DNA of 64,000 nt from Clostridiales bacterium (GTDB taxonomy: Bacteria; Bacillota; Dehalobacteriia; UBA7702), in assembly GCA_040776805.1 (NCBI GenBank), contig JAXGZS010000001.1:621206-685205 (forward strand), given 5' to 3'. Position numbers and translations under genes: made by a program. Shown here in pieces: positions 1,723-42,201 of the stretch. The stretch's first letter is position 1. Each line of letters opens with the position of its first letter. The notes beneath the pieces are model-generated. The model did not search any database. It saw nothing but the letters and a program-made list of their open reading frames with translations, and was not told the origin of the DNA.

Positions 1723-1723
1723 T

Positions 1724-4383: not shown

Positions 4384-4461
4384 AAATATTGAAATAATAT
4401 ACATTTAGCTATTTACAGCAGGGCGATAATATTGTATATTTAATAATAGAGGTATTGCGAA

Positions 4462-5945: not shown

Positions 5946-6348
5946 AATCGGGACACAGTTTGAATTGGCGGAACGCCTGAAGCAGCACGGTTTTAATGTG
6001 ACCCAGGCGACGGTTTCCCGGGATATCAAAGAGATTGGCTTGATCAAAATTCCCGTTGAGGGTAATTTTTCCAAATATAGTATGCCAGTGAATATTTCCG
6101 TTGGTAATATCGCCGAGCGTATGCGCCGCATGTTTATTGATAACGCTGTATCCATTGATAACGCGGAAAATCTTGTGGTCATCAAAACCCTGCCCGGCAC
6201 GGCCCAGGGGCTTGCCGCTTGCCTGGATCAGTGCGGCTGGCAGGAACTTGTGGGCTGCATTGCCGGGGATGATACCATCTTAATTATCATCAAAGAAAAA
6301 ATGCTGGTAAACGGCATCATCTCCCGCTTTGAAGCATTAATGAACTAA
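5884..6348 (+). CDS. argR: Arginine repressor ArgR/AhrC
   Basis: The N-terminal winged-helix region (QATVSRDIKEIGLIKIP) and the C-terminal oligomerisation/arginine-binding domain (GTIAGDDTILII) are present. The RBS AAGAGG precedes ATG at 5884. The longer ORF from 5818 was rejected. Confidence 0.9.
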   Translation: MVMGTKASRQKMIQKIIEKDEIGTQFELAERLKQHGFNVTQATVSRDIKEIGLIKIPVEGNFSKYSMPVNISVGNIAERMRRMFIDNAVSIDNAENLVVIKTLPGTAQGLAACLDQCGWQELVGCIAGDDTILIIIKEKMLVNGIISRFEALMN

Positions 6349-6386
6349 AAAACTAAAGAACTGATCGCCCAAAGGATGGCTGCGAA

Positions 6387-8069
6387 ATGGAGACCGCCAT
6401 GTTAGCCGAAATTTATGTTGAGAATTTCGCTCTCATTGAGAATCTGCAAATTGAATTTCACGAAGGTCTGAATATCATCACCGGCCAAACCGGCGCCGGC
6501 AAATCGCTTCTCACCGATGCGGTAGGCCTGCTATTAGGCGGCAAAAGCGATAAAGATCTGATACGGCAGGGAACCGGGAAGGCCTTGGTGGAAGGGACGT
6601 TTTCGGGTCCTTTTTCCGCTGCAGTGCAAGACTTTTGCCGGGAAAACGACGTGATGGGCGATACCGTTGTGATCAGCCGGGAAATGAGCAGCGAGGGAAA
6701 GAATACCGTGCGCCTCAACGGCCGGCGGATCACCTTATCCCTTTTGGAAGAGCTGACGCCGCTGCTGATGAACATCCACAGCCAGACAGAGCATTTTTCC
6801 TTATTCAAAGAAGAAGCCCAATTGCAGCTTTTGGACTCCTTCGGCGGTGAAAAAATCGTTACCCAAAAGGAAAGGGTGGGGGAAGCCTTTCTTCTCTGGC
6901 AGGAACGAAAAAGCGCCTTGACAGAGCTGAAACGTAACATGAGTGACAGGGAAAGGCGTCTCGACTACCTTTGCTACCAGCAAAAAGAAATTCAGGGGTT
7001 TCACCTGATGTCCGGGGAAGAGGAAACGGTGCGAGAGACCATCGCGCTCCTTGCCAGCAGTGTGAGCCGCTACGAAGAGGCTCAACTTATTTACGCCAGC
7101 CTCCGCGGCGATGAAAACGGCAATGTGATCGACGGTCTTTACCAGGCGATGAACGCCGCCGGTCGGATCGCCCAAAATGACCAAGCCTTGGAAAAAACAG
7201 CCTCCTCTTTGCAGGATCTTTATTATACCGTCGAAGATATTTCCGAGGAGGTTTTAAATTATCGCGACACCATTGAGATGGATCCCCGGCGCCTGGAGGA
7301 TTTGGAAAACCGTTTGAGTGAAATCAGGAGAGCCGAAAAAAAGTACAACCGCGACGTCGAGGGCATTCTCAACTATTTACAGGAAATTGAGGCGGAAATC
7401 GCCGCCCTGACAGACGCCGATATCTATATGGAGCAAGCCGAAAGGGAAGAAGCCGAGGCTTACCAACGCTTTTTCGCCACCGCGGCGGAGCTCAGCAGTT
7501 TGCGCAGCCAAACCGGGAAGCGCCTTGCCGATGCCATTGAAAAGGAACTGAAAGAGCTGATGCTCCCGGATGCCCGCTTTGATGTGGTGCTCCGCGATGC
7601 TCCCGTTTCCGCCCAGGGAAAAGACAGCGTCACTTTTATGGCGACCATGAACAAAGGGGAGGATCTGCGGCCCTTGGCCAAAGTCGCCTCCGGCGGGGAA
7701 ATCTCCCGGGTGCTTCTGGGCGCCAAAATCATTCTTGCCGATCTCGACGCCATCGGAACGATGATCTTCGATGAAATCGACAGCGGCCTGGGGGGAGAAA
7801 CCGCCGCTCGCGTTGGCGAAAAGCTCAAACGACTGGGCGAAGGGATACAGGTTTTTGCCGTAACTCACTCGCCCCTCGTGGCGGCATACGCCGATCATCA
7901 TTATTATATTGAAAAGAAAGAAGAAAGCGGACGCGTGTCCGTTCATCTAAAAACCCTGTCCAAAAAGGATATTCGTCATGAAATCGCGCGGATGCTGTCA
8001 GGAGACGGAAACAGTACGATTTCCTTACATCAGGCCGACGCGTTATTGAGAGCCGCGGGCAACGGTTAA
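6387..8069 (+). CDS. recN: DNA repair protein RecN
   Basis: A Walker A motif GQTGAGKS is present, with long coiled coils and a C-terminal ABC signature region. The synteny argR-recN is conserved. Confidence 0.95.
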   Translation: METAMLAEIYVENFALIENLQIEFHEGLNIITGQTGAGKSLLTDAVGLLLGGKSDKDLIRQGTGKALVEGTFSGPFSAAVQDFCRENDVMGDTVVISREMSSEGKNTVRLNGRRITLSLLEELTPLLMNIHSQTEHFSLFKEEAQLQLLDSFGGEKIVTQKERVGEAFLLWQERKSALTELKRNMSDRERRLDYLCYQQKEIQGFHLMSGEEETVRETIALLASSVSRYEEAQLIYASLRGDENGNVIDGLYQAMNAAGRIAQNDQALEKTASSLQDLYYTVEDISEEVLNYRDTIEMDPRRLEDLENRLSEIRRAEKKYNRDVEGILNYLQEIEAEIAALTDADIYMEQAEREEAEAYQRFFATAAELSSLRSQTGKRLADAIEKELKELMLPDARFDVVLRDAPVSAQGKDSVTFMATMNKGEDLRPLAKVASGGEISRVLLGAKIILADLDAIGTMIFDEIDSGLGGETAARVGEKLKRLGEGIQVFAVTHSPLVAAYADHHYYIEKKEESGRVSVHLKTLSKKDIRHEIARMLSGDGNSTISLHQADALLRAAGNG

Positions 8070-8127
8070 ACCGACGCCTAAGCGACGTGATTGGTTTCAC
8101 CTTAGGGCAACATCTTCTTCCGCAAAG

Positions 8128-8172
8128 AAACCCTTCTGTCGTATGGCTTTTTACGGCAGAAGGGTTTTGTCT
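8128..8172. terminator. Rho-independent terminator between recN (+) and the amidohydrolase gene (-), probably bidirectional
   Basis: A hairpin forms between cccttctgtcgta and acggcagaaggg, followed by ttttgtctt. Confidence 0.6.
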
Positions 8173-8219
8173 TAAAGTTGGTCAAAAGTTTAATTTAATT
8201 GTTGTTGCAAGGATCCTCC

Positions 8220-9047
8220 TTAGGAAAAACGATCCCCGACCAAAGCGGTGAGAAGTTCGTATTCATCTTGGCTGCCGCGGCCGTGAGGCACGATGCTGCT
8301 GCCGGAATCACTGCCCAAAAGCAGGGGAACATGGAGGGCAGCCGCCTTTTTTACCATCGCGCTATGCGCTTCCACCACGGCTTTCACGATCTCTTGATCC
8401 CAGCCCGAAAGGGCCTTTCCGTAAGTCAGCACATTGGCAAAGGGCGCTAAAGTAGGAGTCCAGGCCACCTGATGTTTTGCCATCAGCTTTAAGATATCCT
8501 CGGTGATGAAATAGCCGTGTTCCACGGAATCCATACCCACTTCGACCACAGAGCGGATGACCTCGGCAAAATTGACATGAACCATGACGGGGAGGCCGCA
8601 TTCATGGGCGGTTTCCCGGATGTAGATCAACTCCCTTTCGCTGAAGCTGCCAAAGATTTCCTGGGGCTTGCCGGTAACATCCACAAGACCGGACTGGACG
8701 ACCTTGACGCAATCGACGCCGCTTTCCATGAGGAAGTGCAGCTCCCTTTTGAGATCGTCCATGGTGCTTAACGGTTTCCCCAAATGGATGCCGTAGCGGT
8801 CTTTTTTCACCAAGGCCCGCCCTGAAGCGGAGAGGTGGATGCCCATGCTCTTTGCTTCCTCCCGTAATTGAAAGGCCAGCATCTTCTTGTCACCGCCGTC
8901 TCTTAGGGCCGTGACGCCGCGGCCCGCGTATTCCAAAAGATTGTTATACGCGTTATCTAAGTCTGTGCCCGCATATTTTTGGCCTCGATTTATTTTGCGG
9001 AAATTGCCGTAAGCCAAATGGATGTGATGATCATAAAGATTCTTCAT
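8220..9047 (-). CDS. Amidohydrolase-family metal-dependent hydrolase (TIM barrel)
   Basis: An N-terminal HHIHLAYG (HxH metal-binding) motif is present, with later His/Asp ligand-like positions. The gene is monocistronic. Confidence 0.6.
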   Translation of the reverse strand: MKNLYDHHIHLAYGNFRKINRGQKYAGTDLDNAYNNLLEYAGRGVTALRDGGDKKMLAFQLREEAKSMGIHLSASGRALVKKDRYGIHLGKPLSTMDDLKRELHFLMESGVDCVKVVQSGLVDVTGKPQEIFGSFSERELIYIRETAHECGLPVMVHVNFAEVIRSVVEVGMDSVEHGYFITEDILKLMAKHQVAWTPTLAPFANVLTYGKALSGWDQEIVKAVVEAHSAMVKKAAALHVPLLLGSDSGSSIVPHGRGSQDEYELLTALVGDRFS

Positions 9048-9270
9048 GCAATCTATTATACTCTTTTTGTCATAAAAGAAAAGTTGTTGCAGCCAATTTA
9101 AGCCGTAAAATGATAAAGAAAGTAAAATAAAATAGAATAAACACGCTGTTTCTCTACTTTCTTTACAAAGTTTATATTCCTGACAAAAAACTCACCTTTT
9201 TTTTTCGACAAAATCTTTTATAATGAAAAAAATATAACAATATTTTATAAAGTAAGCTACAATGAGTTTA

Positions 9271-9395
9271 TGGAAGAGAGCAAAGCTTTCTGGAAAGAGC
9301 AACAAAGATTCATGAGCGGATTTTTAACATATTGTATGAAGCCTCGTGAATGGGTTGTGGAAAAGAGCAAAAACACGGCAGATGGAAAGAAAAAT
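9271..9395 (+). repeat. Four purine-rich direct repeats (TGGAAAGAGCAA-like) in the 5' leader of fhs
   Basis: Copies occur at 9271, 9291, 9359 and 9383: tggaagagagcaaag / tggaaagagcaacaaag / tggaaaagagcaaaaac / tggaaagaaaaa. Confidence 0.5.
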
Positions 9396-9453
9396 TAAAA
9401 GTTCTTTACAAAGGAAAGAAAAGGAAACTAAAAAACGAGAGGAGAACAAAACT

Positions 9454-11211
9454 ATGCTTGATCCTAATGTTATGAAAGACTGGCAAATTGCGGAAGCTGC
9501 GGAGAAAGAATTACCTTCTGTTGACGCATTTCGCGAAAAAATGGGGTTACTTCCCGACGAAATTATTCCCTATGGTCGCACTCCCAAGTTGAATTTTCTC
9601 AAAATCATGGATCGCGTCAAAGATCAACCTGACGGGAAGTTCATCGAAGTTACTGCCATTACCCCCACTCCTTTGGGTGAAGGGAAATCCACCACCTCTT
9701 TGGGTATCATCGAAGGTCTCGGCAAACGCGGCATGAATGTCGGCGGTTGCCTGCGTCAGCCCTCCGGCGGACCGACCATGAACATCAAAGGTACTGCTGC
9801 CGGCGGCGGCAACGCACTGTTGATTCCGATGACGGAATTTTCTTTGGGCCTTACCGGTGATATCAACGAAATCACCAACGCCCACAATCTTTCTATGGTC
9901 GCTTTGAACGCGAGAATGCAGCATGAAAACAATTATAATGATGCAGAGCTGGCGGAAAAAGGTCTGAAACGCTTGGATATTGATCCTGAACGCGTGGAAA
10001 TGGGATGGGTGATTGACTTTGCCGCCCAATGCCTGCGCAACATTGAAATCGGTCTGGGCGGCCCGAAAGACGGCTTCCAGATGAAAAGCAAATTCGGTAT
10101 CTCCGTTAGTTCCGAATTGATGGCGATTCTTGCCGTCGCTCGCGATCTTGCGGACCTTAGAGAACGCGTCGGCAATATCATCGTTGCCTACGACAAACAG
10201 GGCAATCCCGTCACCACCGCTGATTTGCAGGTGGATGGCGCGATGACCGCCTGGATGCGCAATGCCATCAACCCGACTCTCTGTTACACTTCTGAGCTGC
10301 AGCCCTGCCTCGTTCATGCCGGCCCCTTCGCCAACATCGCCATCGGTCAGTCTTCCATCATCGGCGATAGATTGGCCTTGAAGATGTTCGATTACCATGT
10401 TACGGAAAGCGGTTTTGCCGCTGACATCGGTTTCGAAAAATTCTGGAATGTCAAATCCCGTATTTCCGGTTTGACGCCCAATGTCTCGATTCTCGTCTGC
10501 ACCGTTCGCGCCCTTAAAATGCACGGCGGCGGCCCCACCGTGGTTCCCGGCCGTCCTTTACCTGAAGAATACACCAAAGAAAACATCGATCTTCTTGAAA
10601 AAGGCATGTGCAATCTGATTCATCATATCAATACCATTAAAAAGTCGGGGATCAATCCCGTTGTTTGTATCAACAGCTTCAGCAGCGATACCGATGCGGA
10701 AATCAACCTGATTCGTCAAACCTGCGATAAAATGGGCGTTCGCTGCGCGAAATCCGAACATTGGAGATATGGCGGCGAGGGTGCTTTGGATCTGGCCGAT
10801 GCAGTCATCGATGCCTGCAAAGATCCTGTGGATCTCAAATTCCTCTATGACTTGGAAGTTCCCCTGCGTCAACGCGTGGAACTCATCGCCAAAGAAGTTT
10901 ACGGCGCCGACGGCGTAGAATGGTCCGATCTTGCCACTGAAAAGGCGAAACGCTTCGAAGCGGATCCCAAGTACAAAGACTTCTCTACCATGATGGTGAA
11001 AACACATTTGAGCTTGTCTCATGATCCTACCCTGAAAGGCGTGCCCAAAAACTGGAAACTGCCTATCCGCGACGTTTTGGTTTACGGCGGTGCCAAATTC
11101 CTCTGCCCCATGGCGGGTACGATCAGCTTGATGCCCGGTACCAGTTCCCGCCCGGCCTATATGAAGGTCGATGTGGATACCGCCACCGGCGCGGTCAAAG
11201 GACTGTTTTAA
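9454..11211 (+). CDS. fhs: Formate--tetrahydrofolate ligase
   Basis: The protein is alignable to FTHFS along its full length ([12 protein letters not shown]-loop, 586-aa size). ATG at 9454 was chosen over the upstream ORF extension. Confidence 0.95.
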
Positions 11212-11232
11212 AAAAGATAGGAGGGAGCAGCG

Positions 11233-11862
11233 ATGCGATTTGCTGAAAAGACCTGTGATCAAGTGATCACGGAATTGGCTGCAAAAGCTCCCGTTCCCGG
11301 CGGCGGCGGTGCCTCAGCTCTGGTAGGGGCTGTAGGCACCGCCCTCGGCAATATGGTAGGGAGTTTCACCAAAGGAAAGAAAAAATTTGCGGACGTAGAA
11401 GAATCCATTATTTCCCTACAGGAAAAATGCGATGATCTGCAGAACAAGTTTTTAAATCTTATGGATGACGATGCAGAGAACTTTACACCGCTTTCGAAAG
11501 CCTACGGCATGAAAGAGGATACTCAAGAGCAGCGGGAGGAAAAGGCAAGAGTGATGGAGGAAGCGACCGTCAACGCCTGCCGCGTCCCGGAAAAGATTAT
11601 GGAACTATGCTGTGAAGCCATTGACGCTTTGGAGGAGTACCTGAAAATCGGGAATCCTCTCCTCGTCAGTGATGTGGGAGTCGGCGTTCTCTGCTGCAAG
11701 GCCGCCCTTTTTGGCGCGTCTTTGAATGTTTATATCAACACGAAGTCCATGCAAAACAAAGAAACCGCCTCTTCTATCAACGAGAGAACAGGGGAAATGC
11801 TGGCCGCCTACGGCAAAAAGGCGGATGACATTTACCATGCGGTGGCAAGACAGATCCAATAA
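11233..11862 (+). CDS. fchA: Methenyltetrahydrofolate cyclohydrolase (cyclodeaminase-domain protein)
   Basis: FTCD C-terminal cyclodeaminase-like fold (~209 aa, Gly-rich N-terminus VPGGGGASALVGA). It sits between fhs and folD, as in acetogens. Confidence 0.75.
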   Translation: MRFAEKTCDQVITELAAKAPVPGGGGASALVGAVGTALGNMVGSFTKGKKKFADVEESIISLQEKCDDLQNKFLNLMDDDAENFTPLSKAYGMKEDTQEQREEKARVMEEATVNACRVPEKIMELCCEAIDALEEYLKIGNPLLVSDVGVGVLCCKAALFGASLNVYINTKSMQNKETASSINERTGEMLAAYGKKADDIYHAVARQIQ

Positions 11863-11896
11863 ATATTAAACAATAAACAAAAGGAAGGGAGATATT

Positions 11897-12754
11897 ATGG
11901 CAAAGATTTTATCCGGTAAGGAAGTTGCCGCGGCTTTGAAAGAAGATCTTTTAAAACGTGTTGCGGCGTTAAAAGATAAGGGCGTCACGCCAACCTTAGC
12001 CATTGTGCGAGTGGGAGAAAAAGACAGCGACATTGCTTATGAAAAAGGCGCCATGAAAAAATCGGAAACCTTGGGCATTGCCGTGAAAAACGTCATTTTC
12101 CCGGCGGATGTGGAAGAAGCCAAACTCATTGCCGCCCTTGAAGAACTCAACGGCGCCAAGGATGTTCACGGTGTGCTGTTATTCCGTCCGTTACCCGAAC
12201 ATTTGAATTATGACCGTGTCTGCAATACGCTGATTGCGGATAAAGACGTCGACGCCATGACCACCATCAACAGCGGTTTGGTCTATGACGGCAGTGAGGA
12301 CGGGTTCCCTCCCTGCACCGCCCAGGCGGTTATGGAAATATTGGATTATTATGAGATTCCCGTTAAGAGCGCGAAAGTCGCTTTGGTGGGCTGGGGTGCC
12401 GTGGTCGGAAAACCCCTTTCCGTACTGTTGCTGAACCGCTTTGCCACCTTAACGGTGTGTCATATCTTTACAAAAGATGTCTCCACCCCCTGTCAAGACG
12501 CGGAGCTGATTATTTCTGCGGCAGGGAAAGCCAACTTGGTGGGAGAAAAACACTTGGCAAAAGGTCAGATCGTCATCGACGTGGGGATCAACGCAGACCC
12601 CAACAACCCCGGAAAAATCGTGGGGGATGTCGATTATGCTTATGCGGAAAACCTTGTTGACGCCATTACCCCGGTTCCCGGCGGCGTGGGCAGCGTTACC
12701 ACTTCCGTGTTGGCAAAACATGTGATCATGGCTGCTGAAAAAACCCTTAGATAA
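11897..12754 (+). CDS. folD: Bifunctional methylene-THF dehydrogenase / methenyl-THF cyclohydrolase
   Basis: 285 aa. Conserved FolD regions are present, including a GxGxVGKP Rossmann motif (GWGAVVGKP). Confidence 0.9.
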   Translation: MAKILSGKEVAAALKEDLLKRVAALKDKGVTPTLAIVRVGEKDSDIAYEKGAMKKSETLGIAVKNVIFPADVEEAKLIAALEELNGAKDVHGVLLFRPLPEHLNYDRVCNTLIADKDVDAMTTINSGLVYDGSEDGFPPCTAQAVMEILDYYEIPVKSAKVALVGWGAVVGKPLSVLLLNRFATLTVCHIFTKDVSTPCQDAELIISAAGKANLVGEKHLAKGQIVIDVGINADPNNPGKIVGDVDYAYAENLVDAITPVPGGVGSVTTSVLAKHVIMAAEKTLR

Positions 12755-12787
12755 TTCCTTCTAAGGCGACGAAAGGAGTTGAACCAC

Positions 12788-14377
12788 GTGACCAACAGAT
12801 TTAAGGAGTCTCTTTTGGACCCTGGTACCTTTTCGGTAACCTGGGAAATCGTCCCCGGTCGTGGCGCCAATGAAAAAGCCCAGATCGAAGCGATTGAAAC
12901 CGCCAAGGCAGGGGCGAAGGATCCCCGCATCCACGCCATCACCATTACAGACTGTCCCAGCGGGAATCCCGCGATTTTAGCGGAGAATCTGGGCAAAGAG
13001 ATTCTGGATTTGGGCATTGAGCCATTGGTTCATTTTACCTGTAAAGATAAAAACAGAACCCAAATGGAAAGCCAACTGTATGCCATGGCCAGAAGCGGTA
13101 TCCGCAACATACTGGTGATGACCGGTGACTATGTCAACGATGCCTATCAAGGCCGCGCCAAACCGGTTTTTGACATTGACCCCATTCAGTGCGGCGGCTT
13201 GATTTCCACCATGAATCAGGGCTTAGAATATCAAGTCGGTCCCAGAACCATCAAAAACCAACCCACCGATTTCTTTTACGGCTGTGCCGTATCGCCCTTC
13301 AAAAGTCAGGAATCCGAGCAGATCGGACAGTATAACAAGCTGATCAAAAAAGTGAGAGACGGCGGCGCGCAATTTGTCATTTGCCAGCTGGGCTATGATA
13401 TACGGAAATTCCATGAAACCTTCCAATTTATGGAGCAAAATGGGCTGAACGTACCTTTGGTTGGCAATATTTACATTTTGCCTTTCGGCGCAGGGAGATT
13501 GATGAACAGAAACGGGATTCCCGGCGCTGTCGTCACCGATAAGCTTCTGCACCAGCTTGAAAAAGAAAAACAGGCGGAAGATAAGGGCAAAGAAGCGAGA
13601 TTGATGCGGGCTGCAAAAATGTACGGCATCATGAAGGGCATCGGTTTTGCCGGCGCTCACATCGGCGGCCACGGCATGAGCGCCGATGATATGGATTATA
13701 TCATCGTCGAAGGCGAAAAGTACGCGGGTAACTGGAAATCCCATGTAGATGAATTCGATTATCCCATGAAAAACGGTTTCTATTATTATCAGAAGGATCC
13801 CGAAACGGGTCTGAATTCGGAAAAACGTACGGAAATCGATCCCGATAATTTGGAATTCCGCGTGGGCGGGATCTATCATATGTCCCATTTTGTCCACTGG
13901 CTGATGATGACTCCGGGGAAAAATCTTTTTAACTTTATGCGCGGTTTCTACAAACTCATCGACGATACCAAAGTGGAGCGTCCCTATCACTTCTGCGAAC
14001 ACATGGCAAAGGTTATGCTCTATGACTGCAAAGACTGCGGCGACTGCGCCATGACCCATACGGCCTACGCCTGTCCGATGTCGAAATGTCCCAAACATCA
14101 AAGGAACGGCCCCTGCGGCGGCAGCCGTGACGGCTGGTGCGAAGTATATCCCGAGAAGAAGAAATGCATCTACGTCAAAGCCTATACCCGCCTGAAAGGG
14201 TACGGCTTGGAAGAGGAATTATCTACATATTCCGTGGCGCCTTGCGACTGGAAACTTTACCAGAAGCCCTCTTGGGTCAATTATTTCCTCGGCCGCGATC
14301 ATGATGCGAAACGCTTGGGCATTCCTTATGTGCCGCCGAAAGCGGAACGCAAAGCAATGAAACGGAACGCAAAATAA
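12788..14377 (+). CDS. metF: Methylenetetrahydrofolate reductase fused to a C-terminal MetV-like Cys-rich zinc-ribbon domain
   Basis: The N-terminal ~300 aa are alignable to MTHFR (EIVPGRG, HFTCKD, ILVMTGD). The C-terminal ~230 aa carry CKDCGDCA...CPMSKCPKHQRNGPCGG, the MetV / MTHFR-C-terminal-domain signature. GTG at 12788 is preceded by AAGGAG. Confidence 0.85.
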   Translation: MTNRFKESLLDPGTFSVTWEIVPGRGANEKAQIEAIETAKAGAKDPRIHAITITDCPSGNPAILAENLGKEILDLGIEPLVHFTCKDKNRTQMESQLYAMARSGIRNILVMTGDYVNDAYQGRAKPVFDIDPIQCGGLISTMNQGLEYQVGPRTIKNQPTDFFYGCAVSPFKSQESEQIGQYNKLIKKVRDGGAQFVICQLGYDIRKFHETFQFMEQNGLNVPLVGNIYILPFGAGRLMNRNGIPGAVVTDKLLHQLEKEKQAEDKGKEARLMRAAKMYGIMKGIGFAGAHIGGHGMSADDMDYIIVEGEKYAGNWKSHVDEFDYPMKNGFYYYQKDPETGLNSEKRTEIDPDNLEFRVGGIYHMSHFVHWLMMTPGKNLFNFMRGFYKLIDDTKVERPYHFCEHMAKVMLYDCKDCGDCAMTHTAYACPMSKCPKHQRNGPCGGSRDGWCEVYPEKKKCIYVKAYTRLKGYGLEEELSTYSVAPCDWKLYQKPSWVNYFLGRDHDAKRLGIPYVPPKAERKAMKRNAK

Positions 14378-14416
14378 CGCAGTCAGCAGAAATAAGATTT
14401 CAGTTAGGGTGATTTT

Positions 14417-14785
14417 ATGTTCAACATCAGTTTTGCCGAGCTTATGGTTATTCTGCTCATCACCTTCCTGGTGTTGGGACCGAAAGAAATGGCCAAAGTC
14501 GCCCGGGGTTTGGGCAAAGCCGTCAAAAAAGCCCAAAACTTTGTGACGGATATGAAGAACTTTGTCAATGAAAGCGCGGAAGGCACCCCTTTAAACGATA
14601 TGAAGGAGGCGGTTACCGACGTCAAGGAAGCGGTCGATTCAGTAAAAGCCGAAGTTGATAAAATGAACCCTGTCAGTGATCTCAAAAAAGAGATCGAAAC
14701 GGAAATCAAACCGATACAAGACATCAAAAACTTAAAGACCAATCCTGCCAAAAAAGGAGCGGATCTTTTGCAGAAAAAAAAGTAA
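14417..14785 (+). CDS. tatB: TatA/TatB family twin-arginine translocase subunit
   Basis: An N-terminal TM helix is followed by a hinge and an amphipathic helix (FGPKEMAKVARGLGKAVKK). The acidic/charged tail is longer than in TatA. Confidence 0.75.
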   Translation: MFNISFAELMVILLITFLVLGPKEMAKVARGLGKAVKKAQNFVTDMKNFVNESAEGTPLNDMKEAVTDVKEAVDSVKAEVDKMNPVSDLKKEIETEIKPIQDIKNLKTNPAKKGADLLQKKK

Positions 14786-14815
14786 AATCCTTTTAAGAAA
14801 GGGGGAAACCTCTCA

Positions 14816-16429
14816 ATGAGTAAGGGAAATAAAAAGGAAAAAATTGATCCCAAACTAACAAGACGACAATTCTTGGGACTTACCGCCGCCGCCGGTACCA
14901 TGGCGGCGCTCACCGGTTGCGATGTTGTGGATAAAGTAGGCGGCAATGACAATTGGCTGCCCACCCAATACCGCAACAGCGGCAACTACCCGATCAACGC
15001 CAAGGGGCGCATTCCCATCGATCCCGATAATCCGTCGATCATGCGCATCGACGAGAAATGCATCCTCTGCGGGCAGTGCATTGAGGTATGCCAGAATACA
15101 CAGACCATTCACGGTTACTATAAATTGCCTGTTTTGGATACCTTTATGTGCATTAACTGCGGGCAGTGCAGTTTGTGGTGTCCCACCGGTGCCATCCAGG
15201 AAAAGCCCTATATCGACGAGGTTAATGCAGCCATCAACGATCCCGATAAGATCGTGGTGGTGGCCATCTCTCCCGGGGTGCGCATCTCCATCGGCGAAGA
15301 ATTCGGCATGGAGGCGGGGACTTGGGCCCAGGAACAAATGGTTACTGCCGTCCGCCGTCTCGGTGCGGATTACGTATTCAATATCGACTTCTCCTCAGAC
15401 TCCACCATCATGGAGGAAGGCAGCGAGTTTGTCCACCGTGTTACCAACGATGGTGTTCTGCCTCAGTTTACCTCCTGCTGTCCGGCATGGAAGAAATTTG
15501 TCGAATTATACTATCCGGAATTGATTCCCAACATCTCATCGGCAAAAAGCCCCGTGGCGGAAATGGCTGCCTTGGTAAAGACCTATTGGGCGAAGAAAAA
15601 AGGGATCGATCCCTCTAAAATCGTCTATGTGAACGTTCCGCCCTGTACCTGCAAGAAATTCGAAGCCACCACGTTCAATATCGATTCGGCAGCCCGATAT
15701 TGGGAAGAATATGAAGATATCGATTACGGTGCTATCCCCGATATCGATTATGTGCTTTCCACCAGAGAGCTGGCGAGGATGATCAAAACCGCTAATATTG
15801 ATTTTGTCAATTTGCCCGCGGGAGAATTCGACCCCATGCTCAGTGAAGGCAGCGGCGCGGCGGTGATTTTCGCCAACAACGGCGGCGTGATGGAAGCGGC
15901 GATTCGTACCGCCTATTATCTCGTCACCGGAGAGGATCCCCCGGACGACCTTTATCATTTGACGGCTGTCCGCGACAACGACCTCGACGGGTATGCCGAA
16001 GGCAGCCTTGAGGTTCCCGGTTTCGGCACCCTCAATGTGGCGGTTTGCAACGGGTTACACGCCGCCCGTACCCTCTGTGAAGAGATCAAACAGGGCAAAC
16101 GCCCTGAATTGCATTTCCTGGAAGTCATGGCCTGTCCCGGCGGTTGTATCGGCGGCGGCGGCCAGGCCAGAAAAACAGTGCCTCCTACGGACGCTCTGCG
16201 GAAAGCCCGTATTGATTCCATTTACGCTGCCGATGAGGCCATGAATAAAGCGGACAGAGTCAGCTACAAGAATGCTGAAATCGCCACTTTATACAAAGAA
16301 TTCCTCGGTGAGCCTTTGAGCGAACTGTCGGAGTTACTCCTGCATATGCACTACATCGACAGAAGTAAGTCGGTCCATCCGAAAGATACCTCGGATTACG
16401 TCGATACTTACTTCTCCGGTTTGGAATAG
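14816..16429 (+). CDS. hydA: [FeFe]-hydrogenase catalytic subunit with Tat signal peptide and lipobox (exported, membrane-anchored)
   Basis: The N-terminus carries an RRQFLG twin-arginine motif followed by a lipobox LTGC. There are two ferredoxin-like CxxCxxCxxxCP motifs. All three H-cluster signatures are present: TSCCPAW (L1), PPCTCKKFE (L2) and MACPGGCIGGGGQ (L3). Confidence 0.9.
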   Translation: MSKGNKKEKIDPKLTRRQFLGLTAAAGTMAALTGCDVVDKVGGNDNWLPTQYRNSGNYPINAKGRIPIDPDNPSIMRIDEKCILCGQCIEVCQNTQTIHGYYKLPVLDTFMCINCGQCSLWCPTGAIQEKPYIDEVNAAINDPDKIVVVAISPGVRISIGEEFGMEAGTWAQEQMVTAVRRLGADYVFNIDFSSDSTIMEEGSEFVHRVTNDGVLPQFTSCCPAWKKFVELYYPELIPNISSAKSPVAEMAALVKTYWAKKKGIDPSKIVYVNVPPCTCKKFEATTFNIDSAARYWEEYEDIDYGAIPDIDYVLSTRELARMIKTANIDFVNLPAGEFDPMLSEGSGAAVIFANNGGVMEAAIRTAYYLVTGEDPPDDLYHLTAVRDNDLDGYAEGSLEVPGFGTLNVAVCNGLHAARTLCEEIKQGKRPELHFLEVMACPGGCIGGGGQARKTVPPTDALRKARIDSIYAADEAMNKADRVSYKNAEIATLYKEFLGEPLSELSELLLHMHYIDRSKSVHPKDTSDYVDTYFSGLE

Positions 16430-16442
16430 GAGGTGAGCATTG

Positions 16443-17267
16443 ATGAGTAGTAATAGTGCTGTTTTATTCAACGTTGCCAAATGCATTGGCTGCGGCAGCT
16501 GTACCGTTGCCTGCAAACTATGGAACGACCTTGAATTCGGGGATAGCAATGCTCACGGATTTGACGCGGCATTGGCCGCGGATAACTGGACCGTTGTTCA
16601 GTATCACGCCATTAAAAACAAAGAGGATCAAAGCGTATTCCGTTTTGCCAAACGCCAATGTATGCACTGCCTGGAACCTTCTTGCGCTTCCGTTTGTTTC
16701 GCCAACGCCATTACCGTGGACGAAAGCGGCGCCGTGGTTTACAGCCCCAAAAAATGTGTGGGTTGCCGCTATTGCCTGATTGCCTGTCCCTTTGACGTGC
16801 CGAAATACGAGTGGAATAAGGTCTTCCCTTCGGTGATGAAATGCCAGCTTTGCAATGATAAATTGGCGGAAGGCGAAATTCCTTCCTGCGTTTCGGTTTG
16901 TCCCACCGGCGCCCTTATTTTCGGCGACCGCGACAAACTGCTGGAAAAAGCCCATGCCATCATCGCCACTTCCGCGGCCACGGAAAATATGGAAGCAACC
17001 CATTACGTCAATGAGGTCTACGGTGAAAAACAGGCGGGGGGTACCCGTTGGCTGTATATCTCCGACGTTCCTTTCACGGAATTGGGCTTCCCCGCTTCCG
17101 TGCCGAAGAAGAGCATACCGGGAATTGTCCAAGATTACACCAAGTGGAAACCGGGGGTATTTCTGGGAGCCGCCGCGGCCTTTGGCGCCATCGGCATCTA
17201 TACCAAACGCAGACTGAAAATTGAAGAAGAAAAAGCCGGTGAGAATGGAGGCGAAAATAATGTTTGA
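16443..17267 (+). CDS. Four-cluster [4Fe-4S] electron-transfer subunit (FdnH/HybA/PsrB-like) with C-terminal TM anchor
   Basis: Four Cys clusters are present (CIGCGSCTVAC, CMHCLEPSCASVC, CVGCRYCLIACP, CQLC...CVSVCP). There is no signal peptide. A C-terminal hydrophobic helix GVFLGAAAAFGAIGIY is followed by KRRLK. Confidence 0.85.
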   Translation: MSSNSAVLFNVAKCIGCGSCTVACKLWNDLEFGDSNAHGFDAALAADNWTVVQYHAIKNKEDQSVFRFAKRQCMHCLEPSCASVCFANAITVDESGAVVYSPKKCVGCRYCLIACPFDVPKYEWNKVFPSVMKCQLCNDKLAEGEIPSCVSVCPTGALIFGDRDKLLEKAHAIIATSAATENMEATHYVNEVYGEKQAGGTRWLYISDVPFTELGFPASVPKKSIPGIVQDYTKWKPGVFLGAAAAFGAIGIYTKRRLKIEEEKAGENGGENNV

Positions 17268-18471
17268 TTATACTCTCAAGATCAATAAAAAAGCAAGTTT
17301 TCGCTTTACACTGACGCGTTGGATCCTTTTGCTTTTGGCCGCGTTCGGCATCTTCATTTTGATCTACCGCCTCATCAACGGCTTGGGGGCCACCACGAAT
17401 TTGTCTGACGAATGGCCCTGGGGCTTTTGGATCTATATGGATTTGATCTTAAGCGCCTTGGGCGCCTGCGGTTTCGCCGTCGCCATTCTAACCCACATTT
17501 TCCATGTGGAAAAATTCAAACCGTTGGCCCGCAGAGCCTTGCTGATGTCATTTTGCTGTTATGTCCTCGTATTCCTGATTCTCTTTATTGAAATCGGGCG
17601 TTGGGATAACTTCTACTGGTTCTTTATTTCGGGAGCTTTTACTTCACCCCTTTATGAAGTGGCCATTTGTATCACCCTCTACATCATCGTGCAGGTATTT
17701 GAACTTTTGGAAGTTTGGGGCGACCGTTATAAATCCTGGGTGAAACATATTACCCGGTTTTTCCTGCCCTTCTTTGTCCTCTTGGCCTGTATCATTCCCT
17801 TTGGTCAAGAAGCGGCATACGGCGCGCTTTACCTGGCGATGCCGGCGAAACTCAGCACGATTTGGTACTCGCAATTCCTGCCTTGGGCTTGTTTGATCAC
17901 TTCGTTTTCCGGTGGTCTCTGTTTTGTGGCTGCGGAATATTACGCCCACAACCGTCACTATAAAAAGACCTCCGACGACGCCATGATCAAGAGCTTGCTG
18001 CGGGTTGCCGGTGCCTTCATCCTCATCTACATCGTACTGAAATTCGTCGATCTTTCCGTGCGCGGCGCCTGGACCGAAGTGTTCTCCGGCTCTGCTTCCG
18101 GAAATATGTTCCTCGTAGAATTCATTGTGGGTTCCATTGTTCCTGCGGTGCTGATTTTCAGCCCCATGATCAAGAACTCAATGTGTCAGCTGATTGCCGC
18201 CATTTGCGGTATATTGGGTGTATTAATCAATCGTTTTGATTTCGTTTTTGTCGGCATGGCAGGCTACACCGACGTATCCTATTTCCCCAAATGGACAGAA
18301 ATTTGGCTGGTCATCGGCCTTACCGCGCTGGTGGCGCTAGTCTATATCTTCGCCGTTGAAAACCTTCCCGTCAACCAGGGGAAACACGACGAAAAACCGG
18401 ACATCGTCAGCCGTCCGCCGGCAGGGATCATCCATGTATCCAAAAATGAACAAAACAGTGTTTCTGAATAA
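17260..18471 (+). CDS. NrfD/PsrC/HybB-family integral membrane (quinone-interacting) subunit
   Basis: ~400 aa with 8-10 hydrophobic helices. The typical NrfD-like N-terminal region is present. ATG at 17260 is preceded by GGAGG and overlaps the upstream gene by 8 nt. Confidence 0.8.
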   Translation: MFDYTLKINKKASFRFTLTRWILLLLAAFGIFILIYRLINGLGATTNLSDEWPWGFWIYMDLILSALGACGFAVAILTHIFHVEKFKPLARRALLMSFCCYVLVFLILFIEIGRWDNFYWFFISGAFTSPLYEVAICITLYIIVQVFELLEVWGDRYKSWVKHITRFFLPFFVLLACIIPFGQEAAYGALYLAMPAKLSTIWYSQFLPWACLITSFSGGLCFVAAEYYAHNRHYKKTSDDAMIKSLLRVAGAFILIYIVLKFVDLSVRGAWTEVFSGSASGNMFLVEFIVGSIVPAVLIFSPMIKNSMCQLIAAICGILGVLINRFDFVFVGMAGYTDVSYFPKWTEIWLVIGLTALVALVYIFAVENLPVNQGKHDEKPDIVSRPPAGIIHVSKNEQNSVSE

Positions 18472-18515
18472 ACACGTTATTCTTGCCGAGAAGTAGGCAG
18501 AAGGGGGATGCTCTT

Positions 18516-18752
18516 ATGAGAATTGGTGTATGGGAAATACTTCTGATCATCGTTTTGGTGCTTATCCTTTTTGGTGGCGCCAAGTTAGCCGGGGTCGGCA
18601 AAAACTTGGGACGCGGCATCAAAGAGTTTAAAGAAGAGGTTAAAGACACCGGCGAATCCTCTCCACAGGTTGCGGAAGCGTCTGCGGAAGAAACCAAAAA
18701 AGCGGAAGATACCGAAAAAAAGGAAGCTAAAAATTCCGAGCCCGACGCATAA
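18516..18752 (+). CDS. tatA: Twin-arginine translocase subunit TatA
   Basis: ILLIIVLVLILFGGAKLAGVGKNLGRGIKEFK is a canonical TatA TM-hinge-amphipathic-helix region. Confidence 0.9.
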   Translation: MRIGVWEILLIIVLVLILFGGAKLAGVGKNLGRGIKEFKEEVKDTGESSPQVAEASAEETKKAEDTEKKEAKNSEPDA

Positions 18753-18778
18753 TAAGTTTATCATTTCGTAAGAAGAAG

Positions 18779-19570
18779 GTGAGGCCATTGGCTGATACGA
18801 AGCAGGCGCTGATAGAGCATTTGAATGAGTTGCGCAAAACCTTGATGTATTGCGTGATTGTCTTAGCTGTTAGCTTTGTGCTTGTATTCGCGTTGTTTTG
18901 CGATCCGCTGATGGAGATACTCTTGGCGCCGATCCGCAAGCTCGGTGTGGAATTGGTCTATACGACCTTGACCGAAGTTTGGGTGGTGAAAATGAAAGTC
19001 TCCTTTATTGCGGGGTTTGTGCTTTCTTTTCCCGTCATTTCTTTCTTTTTCTGGCGCTTTCTGCGCCCGGCCTTGTATGCCAGTGAAAAAAGAATGTTTG
19101 CCGTGATGTATTTTTCCTCCCTTTTTCTTTTTATTCTCGGTGTTTGCTTCGCTTTTGTCGCCGTATTGGGTCTAAGCATCAATTTCTTTATTTCCTTTGG
19201 CAGCGGCACTGCTGAACCCATGCTCTCCATCAGCAAGGTGGTCAGCTATATGATGAGCTTCATCATTCCTTTCGGCTTAGTATTCTTGCTGCCTTTGGTG
19301 GTGTATATCCTTACTAAAATCGGCGTCTTGTCTCCCGCGTTATTGGTGAAATCGCGGAAGTATGTCATCGTGATTCTGTCTGTTTTGGCGGCGATTTTGA
19401 CACCTCCGGATATCATTTCACAAATTTTGCTCCTCATTCCTATGCTTCTTTTGTGGGAAATCAGCGTGTTCATCGCGAAACGCGTAAAAGTGAACAAAGA
19501 CCGGCGTGAGGCCAGAGAAAGCCTCGACGCCGGCATAAAAAAGGATGAATCAAAGAGTACAACGGAATAA
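18779..19570 (+). CDS. tatC: Twin-arginine translocase subunit TatC
   Basis: Six TM helices are predicted, with the N-terminal LIEHLNELRKTL signature and the size typical of TatC. Confidence 0.9.
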   Translation: MRPLADTKQALIEHLNELRKTLMYCVIVLAVSFVLVFALFCDPLMEILLAPIRKLGVELVYTTLTEVWVVKMKVSFIAGFVLSFPVISFFFWRFLRPALYASEKRMFAVMYFSSLFLFILGVCFAFVAVLGLSINFFISFGSGTAEPMLSISKVVSYMMSFIIPFGLVFLLPLVVYILTKIGVLSPALLVKSRKYVIVILSVLAAILTPPDIISQILLLIPMLLLWEISVFIAKRVKVNKDRREARESLDAGIKKDESKSTTE

Positions 19571-19706
19571 CGGTCTACTGTAAGCCTTGGTACTGAAGGT
19601 ACTTCTGTCCATTGAAAAGACGCTTTACAAAAATCGTTCGCAACCGCAAAGGGCATCTTCGCGATTGCCGTTGTTTCGCCTTGATACACGAAAGAAGGAG
19701 AATATT

Positions 19707-20528
19707 ATGAGTTTTTTAGCTCCCAATGAAATTGCGAAGGCAGTTTCAACCCTTGGCGAAAAGAAGGGGAAAATGTCTGTCGGCAAACTGATTCTGCCCG
19801 GCCTCCTCGCCGGTGCGTATATTGCTTTGGCCGCAGTGGCCTGTATCACCATAGGCGCCGGCTGGGTCGGCGACTGGGCGGCTTCCGGCTTGAATAAGGC
19901 CGCCGGCGCCGCCGCCTTTACCGTCGGCCTCATGCTTGTGGTGGTTGCCGGCGCCGAATTGTTTACCGGTGACAATATGTATTGCGCCGTTTCTTACCTG
20001 GATAAAAAATCCACCCTTGGTGAGTTGGTGAGAAACTGGGTCACGGTTTACTTCACCAACTTCATCGGCGCCCTGGTCGTGGTATCCATGATCTATTTGG
20101 GCGGTTTCCTCCTAGCCAACGGTGAGCCTTCGGCTTTCGCGACCAAAGCCATTGCCATCGCCACGGCAAAATCCTCCCTCACCTGGGGGCAGGCATTCTT
20201 CCGCGGTATTTTCTGTAACTGGCTGGTTTGCCTCGCCGTCTGGATGGCCGTGGGCTCCCAGGATATTATCAGCAAGATCTTTGCTTGCTTTTTCCCCATC
20301 TTCACCTTCGTACTTTGCGGTTTTGAACACAGTGTCGCCAATATGTTCTTCATTCCCATGGGGATCATCGCGGCCAACGGTTCCGTGGATGTTCTCACCG
20401 TCAGCAACTTTTTAGTGGGCAACCTGATCCCCGTTACCCTCGGCAACATTGTCGGCGGCGGTATTTTCGTGGGTCTCGTTTACTACCTCATGTACCTCAA
20501 AGGCGCGGATGTCAAATTGAAAGCCTAA
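19707..20528 (+). CDS. focA: Formate/nitrite transporter family channel (FocA-like)
   Basis: FNT signature motifs ELFTGDNMY and FEHSVANM are present, with six TM segments. ATG at 19707 is preceded by AAGGAG. Confidence 0.85.
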   Translation: MSFLAPNEIAKAVSTLGEKKGKMSVGKLILPGLLAGAYIALAAVACITIGAGWVGDWAASGLNKAAGAAAFTVGLMLVVVAGAELFTGDNMYCAVSYLDKKSTLGELVRNWVTVYFTNFIGALVVVSMIYLGGFLLANGEPSAFATKAIAIATAKSSLTWGQAFFRGIFCNWLVCLAVWMAVGSQDIISKIFACFFPIFTFVLCGFEHSVANMFFIPMGIIAANGSVDVLTVSNFLVGNLIPVTLGNIVGGGIFVGLVYYLMYLKGADVKLKA

Positions 20529-20635: not shown

Positions 20636-20675
20636 ACCTCTGTGCTTTGATGGCACAGAGGTTCTTTTTTGGCTC
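20636..20675. terminator. Rho-independent terminator after focA
   Basis: cctctgtgc tttgatg gcacagagg, followed by ttcttttttgg. Confidence 0.75.
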
Positions 20676-20737: not shown

Positions 20738-21154
20738 CTATTTTACAACCAGCACGGAACAGGGCGCCAAGCGCACAAGGCTTGCGCAGGTGCTGCCCAT
20801 GATCCTTTCATAAATTGCCGATACGCCCAAAAAGCCGATGATCAAGAGATCGATGTCTTGCTCCATGATAAACTCAATTATCGCCTTTACCTCATGTCCA
20901 AATAAGATATGAGGGATAATGGCGCCGCCCTCCGCGGCGGCGACGGCTTGCGCTTCCTCGATAATTTTTTTGTATTTGCTGTCTTCGTAATCCTTTTCAT
21001 CCATCACTTCGCTGATGGTTTCCGGAAAGCGCAGCATGGCCTCCACGGATACGGTATGCAATGGGGCGTCATAAAAACGTGCAAGCCGTATGCCCTCCGC
21101 CAACGCCTTAAAGGCGTTTTTTGAACCATCAAGACCTACCAGTATCTTGTTCAT
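20738..21154 (-). CDS. uspA: Universal stress protein (UspA family)
   Basis: 138 aa with USP-fold ATP-binding motifs (VGLDGS near the N-terminus, GSTCASL near the C-terminus). Co-operonic with the antiporter. Confidence 0.8.
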   Translation of the reverse strand: MNKILVGLDGSKNAFKALAEGIRLARFYDAPLHTVSVEAMLRFPETISEVMDEKDYEDSKYKKIIEEAQAVAAAEGGAIIPHILFGHEVKAIIEFIMEQDIDLLIIGFLGVSAIYERIMGSTCASLVRLAPCSVLVVK

Positions 21155-22361
21155 GGTGATGCTCCTCTCTTTTTACAGAATAACTGATTTTGTTTGACTT
21201 TGCCTTTCCCCAATCGTTCATCTCCTCCGCCGAAGGTTCAAAAAACCGCTGAGCGATCAAAGTTGGTATGATTGCGGTCAGGATAATGACGGTAACCAGC
21301 ACAGAATATTGGTCTTGCCCGATGATATGATGGGAAAGCCCAAATTGCGCTGAAATGGTACCGAAGGTAAGCCCGGTGGACATCAGCAGCGTTGTATAAT
21401 TGGCTTGTTTGAGCCCCATCTGAAACCCCCTTGCCGCCGGCCAGACGCCGATCATTTTGCAGAGGACTTTCATCAAGAATAAAGCGGCGATCACCCCAAA
21501 GGATAGCCAAACGGCATGCAAGGACACATGCAAGCCCGCTTTCATAAAGTAGAAAGGGGTGAAAACCGCGAAGGTGATGGTACGCATCCGGCTGATGAGG
21601 GTTTTATTTTTAACGAATACCCCCGCAACCACAAGACCGATGAGATAAGCGGGAAGCACCGCCTCGCTGCCGGCAAGGGTGGCAAGTCCCGCTAAAAGGA
21701 AGAGGACGAAAAAGATGAATTTTACTTCCGGTTCGCTGACCCTTTGTTCTCCGCATTTGGCAAGGATAAATCTTGTGAGGCGAGGCATCAAAAACATCAC
21801 GATGGCCGTGAGCACAATAAAAACAAGCAGATACAAATTGAATCCGGCAAAGAGTACACCGAGAGCGATGACAGTGGCCAAGTCGTTGACGAAACAGGCC
21901 GCCAGGATCATCTTGCCGAGGCTGGTGTTGGCTTTACCCGTTTCGATCATCACCGCATATACCACCGCCACCGAAGTCGTGGAAAGAGCGAGTCCGGCGA
22001 TTTGCGCCTGCTGGAGATCCCAGCCAAGCACAAATTGGGTAAAAAGCCAGACGCCGCCAAAGGGAAAAATGAATGCCGCGATACCGATGGTGAGACTGCT
22101 TTTTAAATTGGCGCGTAAGGAAACCGGGTCAATTTCCGCGCCGGACAGGAAGGTCAAGACGACGCTTCCCAAAGCGGCTAAAAAATCAATCCATTCATTG
22201 GTTTGGTGAAGACCCAAGAAATTTCCCGCAATCACGCCGACGATGATTTCGATCAAAGCCACAGAAATACCAAGACGTATGGAGATCAGGCTGGCGAAAA
22301 AGGCGAGGCCGATCCAGATGGCGGCGATGACCCAGGTGTTGTTCAAAATCGTTGATAACAA
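21129..22361 (-). CDS. Cation:proton antiporter (CPA family Na+/H+ or K+/H+ exchanger), fluoride-riboswitch controlled
   Basis: 410 aa with ~11-12 TM helices and Na_H_Exchanger-like topology. The gene lies immediately downstream (minus strand) of two crcB-motif riboswitches. Confidence 0.8.
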   Translation of the reverse strand: MLSTILNNTWVIAAIWIGLAFFASLISIRLGISVALIEIIVGVIAGNFLGLHQTNEWIDFLAALGSVVLTFLSGAEIDPVSLRANLKSSLTIGIAAFIFPFGGVWLFTQFVLGWDLQQAQIAGLALSTTSVAVVYAVMIETGKANTSLGKMILAACFVNDLATVIALGVLFAGFNLYLLVFIVLTAIVMFLMPRLTRFILAKCGEQRVSEPEVKFIFFVLFLLAGLATLAGSEAVLPAYLIGLVVAGVFVKNKTLISRMRTITFAVFTPFYFMKAGLHVSLHAVWLSFGVIAALFLMKVLCKMIGVWPAARGFQMGLKQANYTTLLMSTGLTFGTISAQFGLSHHIIGQDQYSVLVTVIILTAIIPTLIAQRFFEPSAEEMNDWGKAKSNKISYSVKREEHHHEQDTGRS

Positions 22362-42099: not shown

Positions 42100-42201
42100 A
42101 TCGCGTACTTAAATATTCTACCATATTATTTGATTTCGTCAAGAGGGGATTTCCTTGACAGCAGCGTTTTATCTTTTATAATGGGAGACAGAGGTAAAAC
42201 A

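Follow-up and report, generated by a model that had tools for sequence, protein, structure and literature searches.

A 64,000-nucleotide stretch of a Clostridiales bacterium genome (contig JAXGZS010000001.1, positions 621,206 to 685,205; here called the window) encodes MetF::V, a 529-residue protein that carries an N-terminal methylenetetrahydrofolate reductase (MTHFR, or MetF) barrel and a C-terminal, cysteine-rich MetV-type module in one polypeptide. This arrangement had been proposed from the letters alone (the sequence-only reading) and is borne out by Pfam and by alignments to MetV. The fusion is real. By sequence comparison, MetF::V is a plain member of a large, already annotated family that combines the Pfam domains PF02219 and PF12225. 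It is likely a single-chain MTHFR of the MetVF kind, serving the Wood-Ljungdahl pathway's methyl branch without pyridine-nucleotide use.

Domain composition of MetF::V

Translation of positions 12788-14377 on the forward strand gives 529 codons with a stop only at the end and a frame that is otherwise open. The longest mechanical open reading frame (ORF) opens at TTG 12779. GTG 12788 nevertheless appears to be the best start, because of the spacing of an AGGAG sequence upstream and because the resulting N-terminus, MTNRFKESLL, agrees with the family consensus start MENRFKESLLD; the same two points uphold the boundaries 12788-14377 of the sequence-only reading. Of the 80 best related loci in genomes, 79 carry one continuous ORF of 510-590 residues across the matching region, which together with the open frame rules out a frameshift or a pseudogene. 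AlphaFold2 gives the entire chain a compact model of good confidence (mean predicted local distance difference test score, pLDDT, 88.2; predicted template modelling score, pTM, 0.89).

A frameshift, a missed stop, a chimeric assembly or a C-terminus unrelated to MetV has a negligible probability of explaining the fusion: no point was found in favor of such an artefact, and the stop-free frame, the continuous ORF in independent genomes, the identical architecture of 120 of the 120 best database matches, the PF12225 match (E 1e-26) with its 98.35% profile alignment to canonical MetV, and the confident single-chain model all exclude it. The sequence-only reading had itself named an unrelated C-terminus and a hidden stop or frameshift as possible flaws, and neither is present. 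Of the checks that it proposed, the domain scan with hidden Markov models recovered both PF02219 and PF12225 well over their gathering cutoffs, and the structure prediction of the full protein gave the single compact chain described above.

The barrel matches PF02219 at residues 12-274 (66.5 bits, gathering cutoff 24). Foldseek aligned the full model with solved MTHFRs from Thermus thermophilus and Escherichia coli at template modelling (TM) scores, relative to the target, of 0.76-0.83 (T. thermophilus 8eac, E 5e-11, 0.79; E. coli 1zp3, 0.83). Among 47 homologs of the fused family, E20 and D114 never vary and Q200 is missing from just one, and an alignment with T. thermophilus MTHFR pairs VMTGD with ALRGD and ICQL with ITQL. 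By alignment, these residues appear to correspond to the catalytic Glu, Asp and Gln of flavin-dependent MTHFR, which in the E. coli enzyme we take to be E28, D120 and Q183. A domain scan of MetF::V found no NAD(P)H-binding domain. NCBIfam models gave MTHFR-type matches, all sub-threshold. An assignment as bifunctional homocysteine S-methyltransferase/MTHFR (NF006396) was rejected, as the match scored 110 bits against a cutoff of 453 and covered the MTHFR half only (321-565 of 611).

The barrel is followed by a linker of ~75 residues (~324-398) that matched no Pfam family. The AlphaFold2 model and the family alignment suggest a beta-hairpin and helices with a conserved NGFYYY..GLN motif. F331, Y332, L342, N343, H370 and P376 are invariant in the linker, and residues 296-402 are free of cysteine. 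The PF12225 domain (‘Methylene-tetrahydrofolate reductase C terminal’) lies at residues 399-491 (92.8 bits, cutoff 23, E 1.1e-26). Its eight core cysteines, in the pattern CxxCxxC..CP..C..C..C..C, are present without exception in the 47 fused homologs compared and align with C130-C175 of canonical MetV, the eight invariant core cysteines of that protein. They are predicted ligands of two [4Fe-4S] clusters, a two-cluster assignment made because of the Fe/S analysis of Clostridium ljungdahlii MetVF (PMC8760232). The C-terminal tail carries a conserved W..N..LGRDH motif, in which W496, N498, G502, D504 and H505 are invariant.

The canonical MetV used for comparison comes from an Acetoanaerobium noterae record in a plasmid collection. 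Its Wood-Ljungdahl cluster reads cooS-cooC-fhs-fchA-metV-metF-lpdA-cooC-acsD-acsC, with metV (6584-7261, 225 residues) and metF (7282-8190, 302 residues) as separate genes. A. noterae MetV contains PF12225 at residues 119-213, and its first 118 residues have no Pfam match. Relatives of this protein are all 214-232 residues long (at least 93% coverage) and include C. drakei, C. magnum and C. difficile proteins and a Clostridium aceticum protein annotated as MetV. In an alignment of 25 MetVs, the invariant cysteines comprise five in the N-terminal domain (C27, C30, C34, C66 and C93 of C. aceticum MetV) and eight in the PF12225 core.

Three comparisons delimit the part of MetV that is present in MetF::V. 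BLASTP of the MetF::V C-terminus against A. noterae MetV aligned only residues 413-473, at 44% identity; hhalign of the fused-family profile against the A. noterae sequence covered residues 413-488 at 97.8% probability; and hhalign against the 25-MetV profile paired residues 413-487 with MetV residues 129-201 at 98.35% as the sole match. By tblastn, the N-terminal 118 residues of MetV had no match in the 64-kb window or in the 80 loci. On these alignments, only ~75 residues (413-487) are homologous to acetogen MetV and the ~128-residue five-cysteine N-terminal domain is absent. Given the single MetV match and a linker without cysteine or Pfam domain, MetF::V is best described as MetF, a family-specific linker, an eight-cysteine MetV core and a conserved tail, not as a fusion to whole MetV.

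The assignment of the C-terminal ~230 residues to MetV in the sequence-only reading is thus correct for residues 413-487 and fails for the rest, as the first 128 residues of MetV are unmatched; the cysteine signature that it quoted, CKDCGDCA...CPMSKCPKHQRNGPCGG, is present within the PF12225 domain (residues 414-421 and 429-445). A circular permutation, or hidden homology of the ~100 residues before PF12225, was considered and rejected on BLASTP, sequence-profile and profile-profile evidence. By the same comparisons, MetF::V lacks two hallmarks of canonical MetV, its existence as a separate subunit and its N-terminal five-cysteine domain. This domain may link MetV to partners, and the partner of the fused enzyme may differ from that of split type II MetVF.

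A widespread family and its relation to known MTHFRs

We identified at least 5007 matches to MetF::V in a search of ~5.8 billion proteins. The best 120 of these all contain PF02219 and PF12225, are 508-541 residues long and cover 95-100% of the query. A collection with one genome per species contains at least 551 stretches that code for a relative. Named sources of fused relatives include Thermincola potens, Desulfosporosinus acidiphilus, Desulfitobacterium, Desulfitispora alkaliphila, Fervidicola, Dehalobacterium, Syntrophales/Smithella and Kiritimatiellae metagenome-assembled genomes (MAGs). NCBI names these relatives ‘methylenetetrahydrofolate reductase C-terminal domain-containing protein’. 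These counts, and the name of PF12225, which itself records the F-then-V order, contradict the earlier suggestion that such a fusion is uncommon; the single-chain F-then-V architecture is already known, widespread and catalogued.

A search with the C-terminal 234 residues, meant for canonical MetVs, returned 1026 clusters at 50% identity; most entries proved to be fusions, fragments or high-GC sequences with frameshifts, and among the best 150 there are dozens of fusions at full length. For scale, canonical split MetV as the seed gave 3385 clusters. Two proteins extend the fused architecture. An 832-residue protein (P0163) has MetF-linker-PF12225 followed by a C-terminal pterin-binding methyltransferase domain, and a 668-residue protein (P0123) has the same three parts with an additional ~150-residue N-terminal extension that lacks a Pfam match.

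Set against the ~520-residue PF02219 plus PF12225 family in databases, MetF::V has the same architecture, length and invariant residues, with full-length identities of 55-95%. Its gene neighbourhood alone differs, as downstream genes for a hydrogenase exported by twin-arginine translocation (Tat), NrfD and FocA are a feature of a UBA7702-related clade. The fusion as first stated matters little: the architecture is common, and a 95%-identical protein of Peptococcaceae bacterium UBA7702 is already in a public MAG. The published acetogen MTHFR types I-IV do not list a single-chain form (PMC8760232), and no description or purification of an F-V fusion was found in the literature searched. The gap is in biochemical knowledge of the fused form and is not a discovery from this window.

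The fused form is the MTHFR of acs/methyl-branch clusters or of corrinoid-methyltransferase neighbourhoods in many anaerobes, including Desulfosporosinus, Desulfitobacterium, Thermincola, Dehalobacterium, Syntrophales and UBA7702 relatives. As a single chain without the MetV N-terminal domain, it would be a convenient minimal system for the question of the MetVF electron donor, and it could yield the first structure of a PF12225 module.

The nearest characterized system is type II MetVF (C. ljungdahlii, C. aceticum, C. formicoaceticum, Eubacterium callanderi and Thermoanaerobacter kivui; PMC8760232), which has the same barrel and eight-cysteine PF12225 module. The cysteine cores are 36-44% identical, and the systems are further alike in that an NAD(P)H-binding subunit is missing, that genes for Hdr, Mvh or RnfC do not lie close by, and that fhs, fchA and folD accompany them. 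They differ in that MetF::V is one F-then-V chain, whereas type II enzymes have two subunits encoded V-then-F, and in that a cysteine-free linker of ~75 residues stands where MetV has its five-cysteine domain of ~128 residues. The barrel of MetF::V is also just 28% identical to canonical acetogen MetF (A. noterae). By analogy, MetF::V would work like type II MetVF.

Type III (RnfC2-MetVF, Acetobacterium woodii) and type IV (HdrABC-MvhD-MetVF, Moorella thermoacetica) enzymes share the MetF barrel and a PF12225-bearing MetV with the fused protein (PMC8760232; PMC5736913). Both types depend on a partner that oxidises NADH (RnfC2 or HdrA) and is encoded beside metVF, whereas the MetF::V operon has none, and rnfC2, hdrABC and mvhD are all absent from positions 9346-20528. 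Type I NAD(P)H-dependent MetF (E. coli, T. thermophilus) shares the (beta/alpha)8 fold and the catalytic Glu, Asp and Gln but differs in lacking an Fe-S module, in using NAD(P)H directly and in its identity to MetF::V of 15-18%.

A split pair is encoded on plasmid p1 of Paracoccus methylovorus, a facultatively aerobic alphaproteobacterium. The locus (1417-9629 of the extracted region, L082) encodes an MttB-family methyltransferase, a B12-binding protein, DUF1638, a 196-residue PF12225 protein (V), a 388-residue MTHFR (F), a methyl-tetrahydrofolate (methyl-THF):cobalamin methyltransferase and a RACo-like ASKHA protein; identity is 36%. By tblastn, the V protein covers window positions 13925-14320 (residues ~380-511), including a pre-core helix and the W..N..LGRDH tail that it has in common with MetF::V. 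Acetogen MetV is thus less close to the fused module than this V protein. Acinetobacter plasmids also bear PF12225 genes.

Proposed electron path and direction of the reaction

Each heterodimer of purified MetVF contains one flavin and about two [4Fe-4S] clusters, and the enzyme works with reduced ferredoxin or viologens but does not use NAD(P)H (PMC8760232). From this precedent, together with the conserved residues, the lack of a nucleotide-binding domain and the lack of Hdr, Mvh or Rnf neighbours, we infer a similar path in MetF::V. The flavin-binding (beta/alpha)8 barrel would interconvert 5,10-methylene-THF and 5-methyl-THF. Electrons would pass singly from a donor to the two [4Fe-4S] clusters of the eight-cysteine module, then to the flavin and to methylene-THF, or in reverse, so that the fused PF12225 module would take the place of a hydride from NAD(P)H. 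By analogy with the split enzymes, MetF::V is expected to contain flavin and clusters, to make no use of NAD(P)H and to have a ferredoxin-like or other low-potential partner.

Several points weigh against this assignment. The barrel is divergent, with a PF02219 score of 66.5 bits compared to 125 for canonical MetF and identities of 17-28%. Flavin-independent enzymes of the MTHFR fold (PDB 8bgr and 7wmz) are among the Foldseek matches, and flavin binding is predicted only. The five-cysteine N-terminal domain of MetV is absent from MetF::V. The PF12225 module has no solved structural relative by PDB sequence search or Foldseek: sequence searches with the full protein and with its C-terminal 229 residues matched MTHFR barrels only and left the V module unmatched, and in Foldseek searches of the PDB the full model found barrels only and the C-terminal model found nothing at E < 1. 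Modelled alone, the C-terminal module is only moderately confident (pLDDT 70.5, with the cysteine-rich loop below 50), and this stand-alone model was not used to infer its fold. In the full chain the same loop reaches pLDDT 76-90; that it is modelled with confidence only when the barrel is present is consistent with close packing of F against V. Finally, the literature searched held no characterized fused-form enzyme, and the cofactors, donor and direction given here are extrapolated from split enzymes.

Gene context bears on the direction of the reaction. Among 79 loci carrying the fusion, the neighbours include a pterin-binding methyltransferase (23 loci), RACo (19 loci), a corrinoid protein (16 loci) and MttB (7 loci), while hdrABC, mvhD and rnfC2 are not among the frequent neighbours. 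Many Desulfosporosinus and Desulfitobacterium copies adjoin genes for a pterin-binding methyltransferase, RACo, a corrinoid protein, MttB and DUF6951, and a 64%-identical fusion sits within an acsC-RACo-cooC-acsD-acsE cluster. These contexts all make or consume methyl-THF, which supports both the MTHFR assignment and a reversible role. Reversibility is suggested in particular by the corrinoid methyltransferase systems that adjoin the fusion elsewhere, where methyl-THF would be oxidised. In 15 loci, mainly from Desulfosporosinus, a gene for a ~106-residue DUF6951 protein lies directly 3' of metF::V (for example L045 11640-11960). This protein is a candidate small partner of MetF::V in those genomes and is not encoded in the window.

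In the window, metF::V lies directly 3' of fhs-fchA-folD with a 34-nt gap, and the gene order fhs-fchA-folD-metF::V-tatA-hydA-hybA-nrfD-tatA-tatC-focA has the appearance of one operon, in which no strong terminator-like hairpin precedes the one 3' of focA (Table 1). The full order from fhs to focA is kept in Peptococcaceae bacterium UBA7702, to which the source organism, a member of the Bacillota, is close, with 83-98% identity per protein and 95% for MetF::V. It is also kept in Candidatus Cryptoclostridium obscurum, in rumen MAGs and in a MAG with a 73%-identical MetF::V.

An oxidative direction for the same enzyme is plausible, if rather unlikely. Methyl groups from methylated amines or methoxylated compounds would enter through corrinoid methyltransferases, and methyl-THF would then pass through MetF::V, FolD, FchA and Fhs to formate, which would leave through FocA. 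The commonest neighbours of the fusion elsewhere (pterin-binding methyltransferase, RACo, corrinoid protein and MttB-family methyltransferases) are consistent with this direction, as are an MttB-family gene in the window and an apparent operon that ends with focA and contains no formate dehydrogenase gene. The MttB gene (37495-38904, reverse strand), however, is 23 kb away and on the other strand. Tat-exported hydrogenases are usually uptake hydrogenases, and the one encoded in the operon fits reductive use of H2. A precedent for the oxidative direction is Tepidanaerobacter acetatoxydans, which has split metV and metF, lacks formate dehydrogenase and likewise takes methyl groups to formate (PMC13564433). 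Against it, the fusion lies inside acs clusters in other lineages, and for the GTDB order of class Dehalobacteriia that likewise bears the name UBA7702, a complete Wood-Ljungdahl pathway has been reported (PMC10327494).

The hydrogenase genes raise a further possibility, which we consider improbable: that MetF::V closes a membrane redox loop on the cytoplasmic side. The Tat-exported [FeFe]-hydrogenase would oxidise H2 outside the cell and pass electrons through the HybA- and NrfD-like subunits, with or without quinone, to methylene-THF inside, coupling its reduction to a proton gradient. The genes metF::V, tatA, hydA, hybA, nrfD, tatA, tatC and focA are contiguous and co-oriented without a strong internal terminator, and relatives still show the linkage where MetF::V is down to 73% identical and HydA is 53-69% identical. 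For Thermacetogenium phaeum, a connection between quinone and MTHFR has also been proposed (PMC6895022). The linkage to Tat-hydrogenase, NrfD and FocA, however, is limited to one UBA7702-related clade (L001-L005 and the P0001 and P0006 contigs), and at most remaining loci the neighbours of metF::V differ. HybA/NrfD modules normally reduce menaquinone, at about -74 mV. The reduction potential of methylene-THF is -200 to -130 mV (PMC4320612). The potential of menaquinone is thus too high for methylene-THF reduction without energy input. HybA-type subunits normally sit on the periplasmic side, another point against the loop, and MetF::V has no sign of membrane docking. Co-transcription may simply mean that use of H2 and formate is co-regulated with the C1 pathway.

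It is highly improbable, in our judgement, that MetF::V in this clade accepts electrons from the exported hydrogenase/HybA/NrfD complex in an energy-conserving loop. If it did, the loss of the MetV N-terminal domain and the gain of a conserved linker would be an adaptation to a different partner, and the MTHFR step would be directly coupled to chemiosmosis, a coupling sought since the 1970s. The conserved operon linkage to an exported [FeFe]-hydrogenase, NrfD and FocA offers a lead on how the methyl branch is supplied by H2 and formate in this clade.

Apparent operon and other genes of the window

Table 1. Coordinates of metF::V, its parts and the genes of the apparent operon (window positions)
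Feature	Position	Strand	Basis
metF::V ORF, 529 residues + stop	12788..14377	+	translation, Pfam, family-consensus N-terminus, AlphaFold2
Shine-Dalgarno-like AGGAG, 9 nt 5' of GTG 12788	12774..12778	+	sequence read
MTHFR (beta/alpha)8 barrel, residues 1-323	12788..13756	+	PF02219, Foldseek, conservation
Family-specific cysteine-free linker, residues 324-398	13757..13981	+	no Pfam, no hhalign match to MetV
PF12225 (MTHFR_C / DUF5981) domain, residues 399-491	13982..14260	+	Pfam, hhalign
Eight-cysteine core (C414, C417, C420, C429, C434, C443, C451, C460)	14027..14167	+	conservation
C-terminal tail, residues 492-529	14261..14374	+	family conservation, tblastn
fhs, formate-tetrahydrofolate ligase	9346..11211	+	PF01268, 717 bits
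fchA, methenyl-THF cyclohydrolase (FTCD_C family)	11233..11862	+	PF04961
folD, methylene-THF dehydrogenase/cyclohydrolase	11897..12754	+	PF00763 + PF02882
tatA/B-like gene, 39 nt 3' of metF::V	14417..14785	+	PF02416
[FeFe]-hydrogenase catalytic subunit, 537 residues	14816..16429	+	PF02906 + PF02256 + Fer4
HybA-like four-cluster (4x[4Fe-4S]) ferredoxin subunit, C-terminal hydrophobic helix	16440..17267	+	PF13247 Fer4_11, related families
NrfD/PsrC-type integral membrane subunit	17221..18471	+	PF03916
tatA	18483-18752	+	PF02416
tatC	18779-19570	+	PF00902
focA-type formate/nitrite channel, last gene of apparent operon	19587..20528	+	PF01226
Strongest intrinsic-terminator-like hairpin of the region (11-bp stem + T-run)	20636..20662	+	3' of focA

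The listed fhs ORF begins at GTG 9346 and has 621 residues. Its true start is probably an internal Met downstream, because the Pfam match to formate-tetrahydrofolate ligase begins only at residue 44. Promoter-like hexamers are present 5' of fhs at 9110-9263. Next to the C1 genes, positions 14417-20528 encode an [FeFe]-hydrogenase that is exported and anchored in the membrane, along with Tat machinery of its own. The catalytic subunit has a twin-arginine signal (TRRQFLGL) and intact H-cluster motifs (TSCCP and MACPGGCIGGGGQ). In the locus of a 73%-identical relative (L085 16529-17563), genes for NuoE-like (2Fe-2S thioredoxin-like) and NuoF-like proteins come after focA and may be part of either a bifurcating hydrogenase or a formate dehydrogenase.

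The MttB-superfamily (trimethylamine-type) methyltransferase gene of the window lies beside a TetR-family regulator gene (38962-39555, reverse strand), and no corrinoid protein gene was identified beside it. It hints at use of methylated amines feeding methyl-THF to the MetF::V step. After 20528, a Na+/H+ exchanger gene (21129-22361) lies on the strand opposite to the operon. A 1158-residue protein with two BcrAD_BadFG ATPase repeats and DUF2229, of the CoA-enzyme activase type, is encoded at 26935-30411 on the reverse strand and may activate a radical dehydratase or reductase. On the forward strand, positions 30598-33228 encode an 876-residue protein with DHH/DHHA1, two CBS and poly(A) polymerase/CCA-adding head domains, and positions 42130-43302 encode an EutH-family (ethanolamine utilisation) permease.

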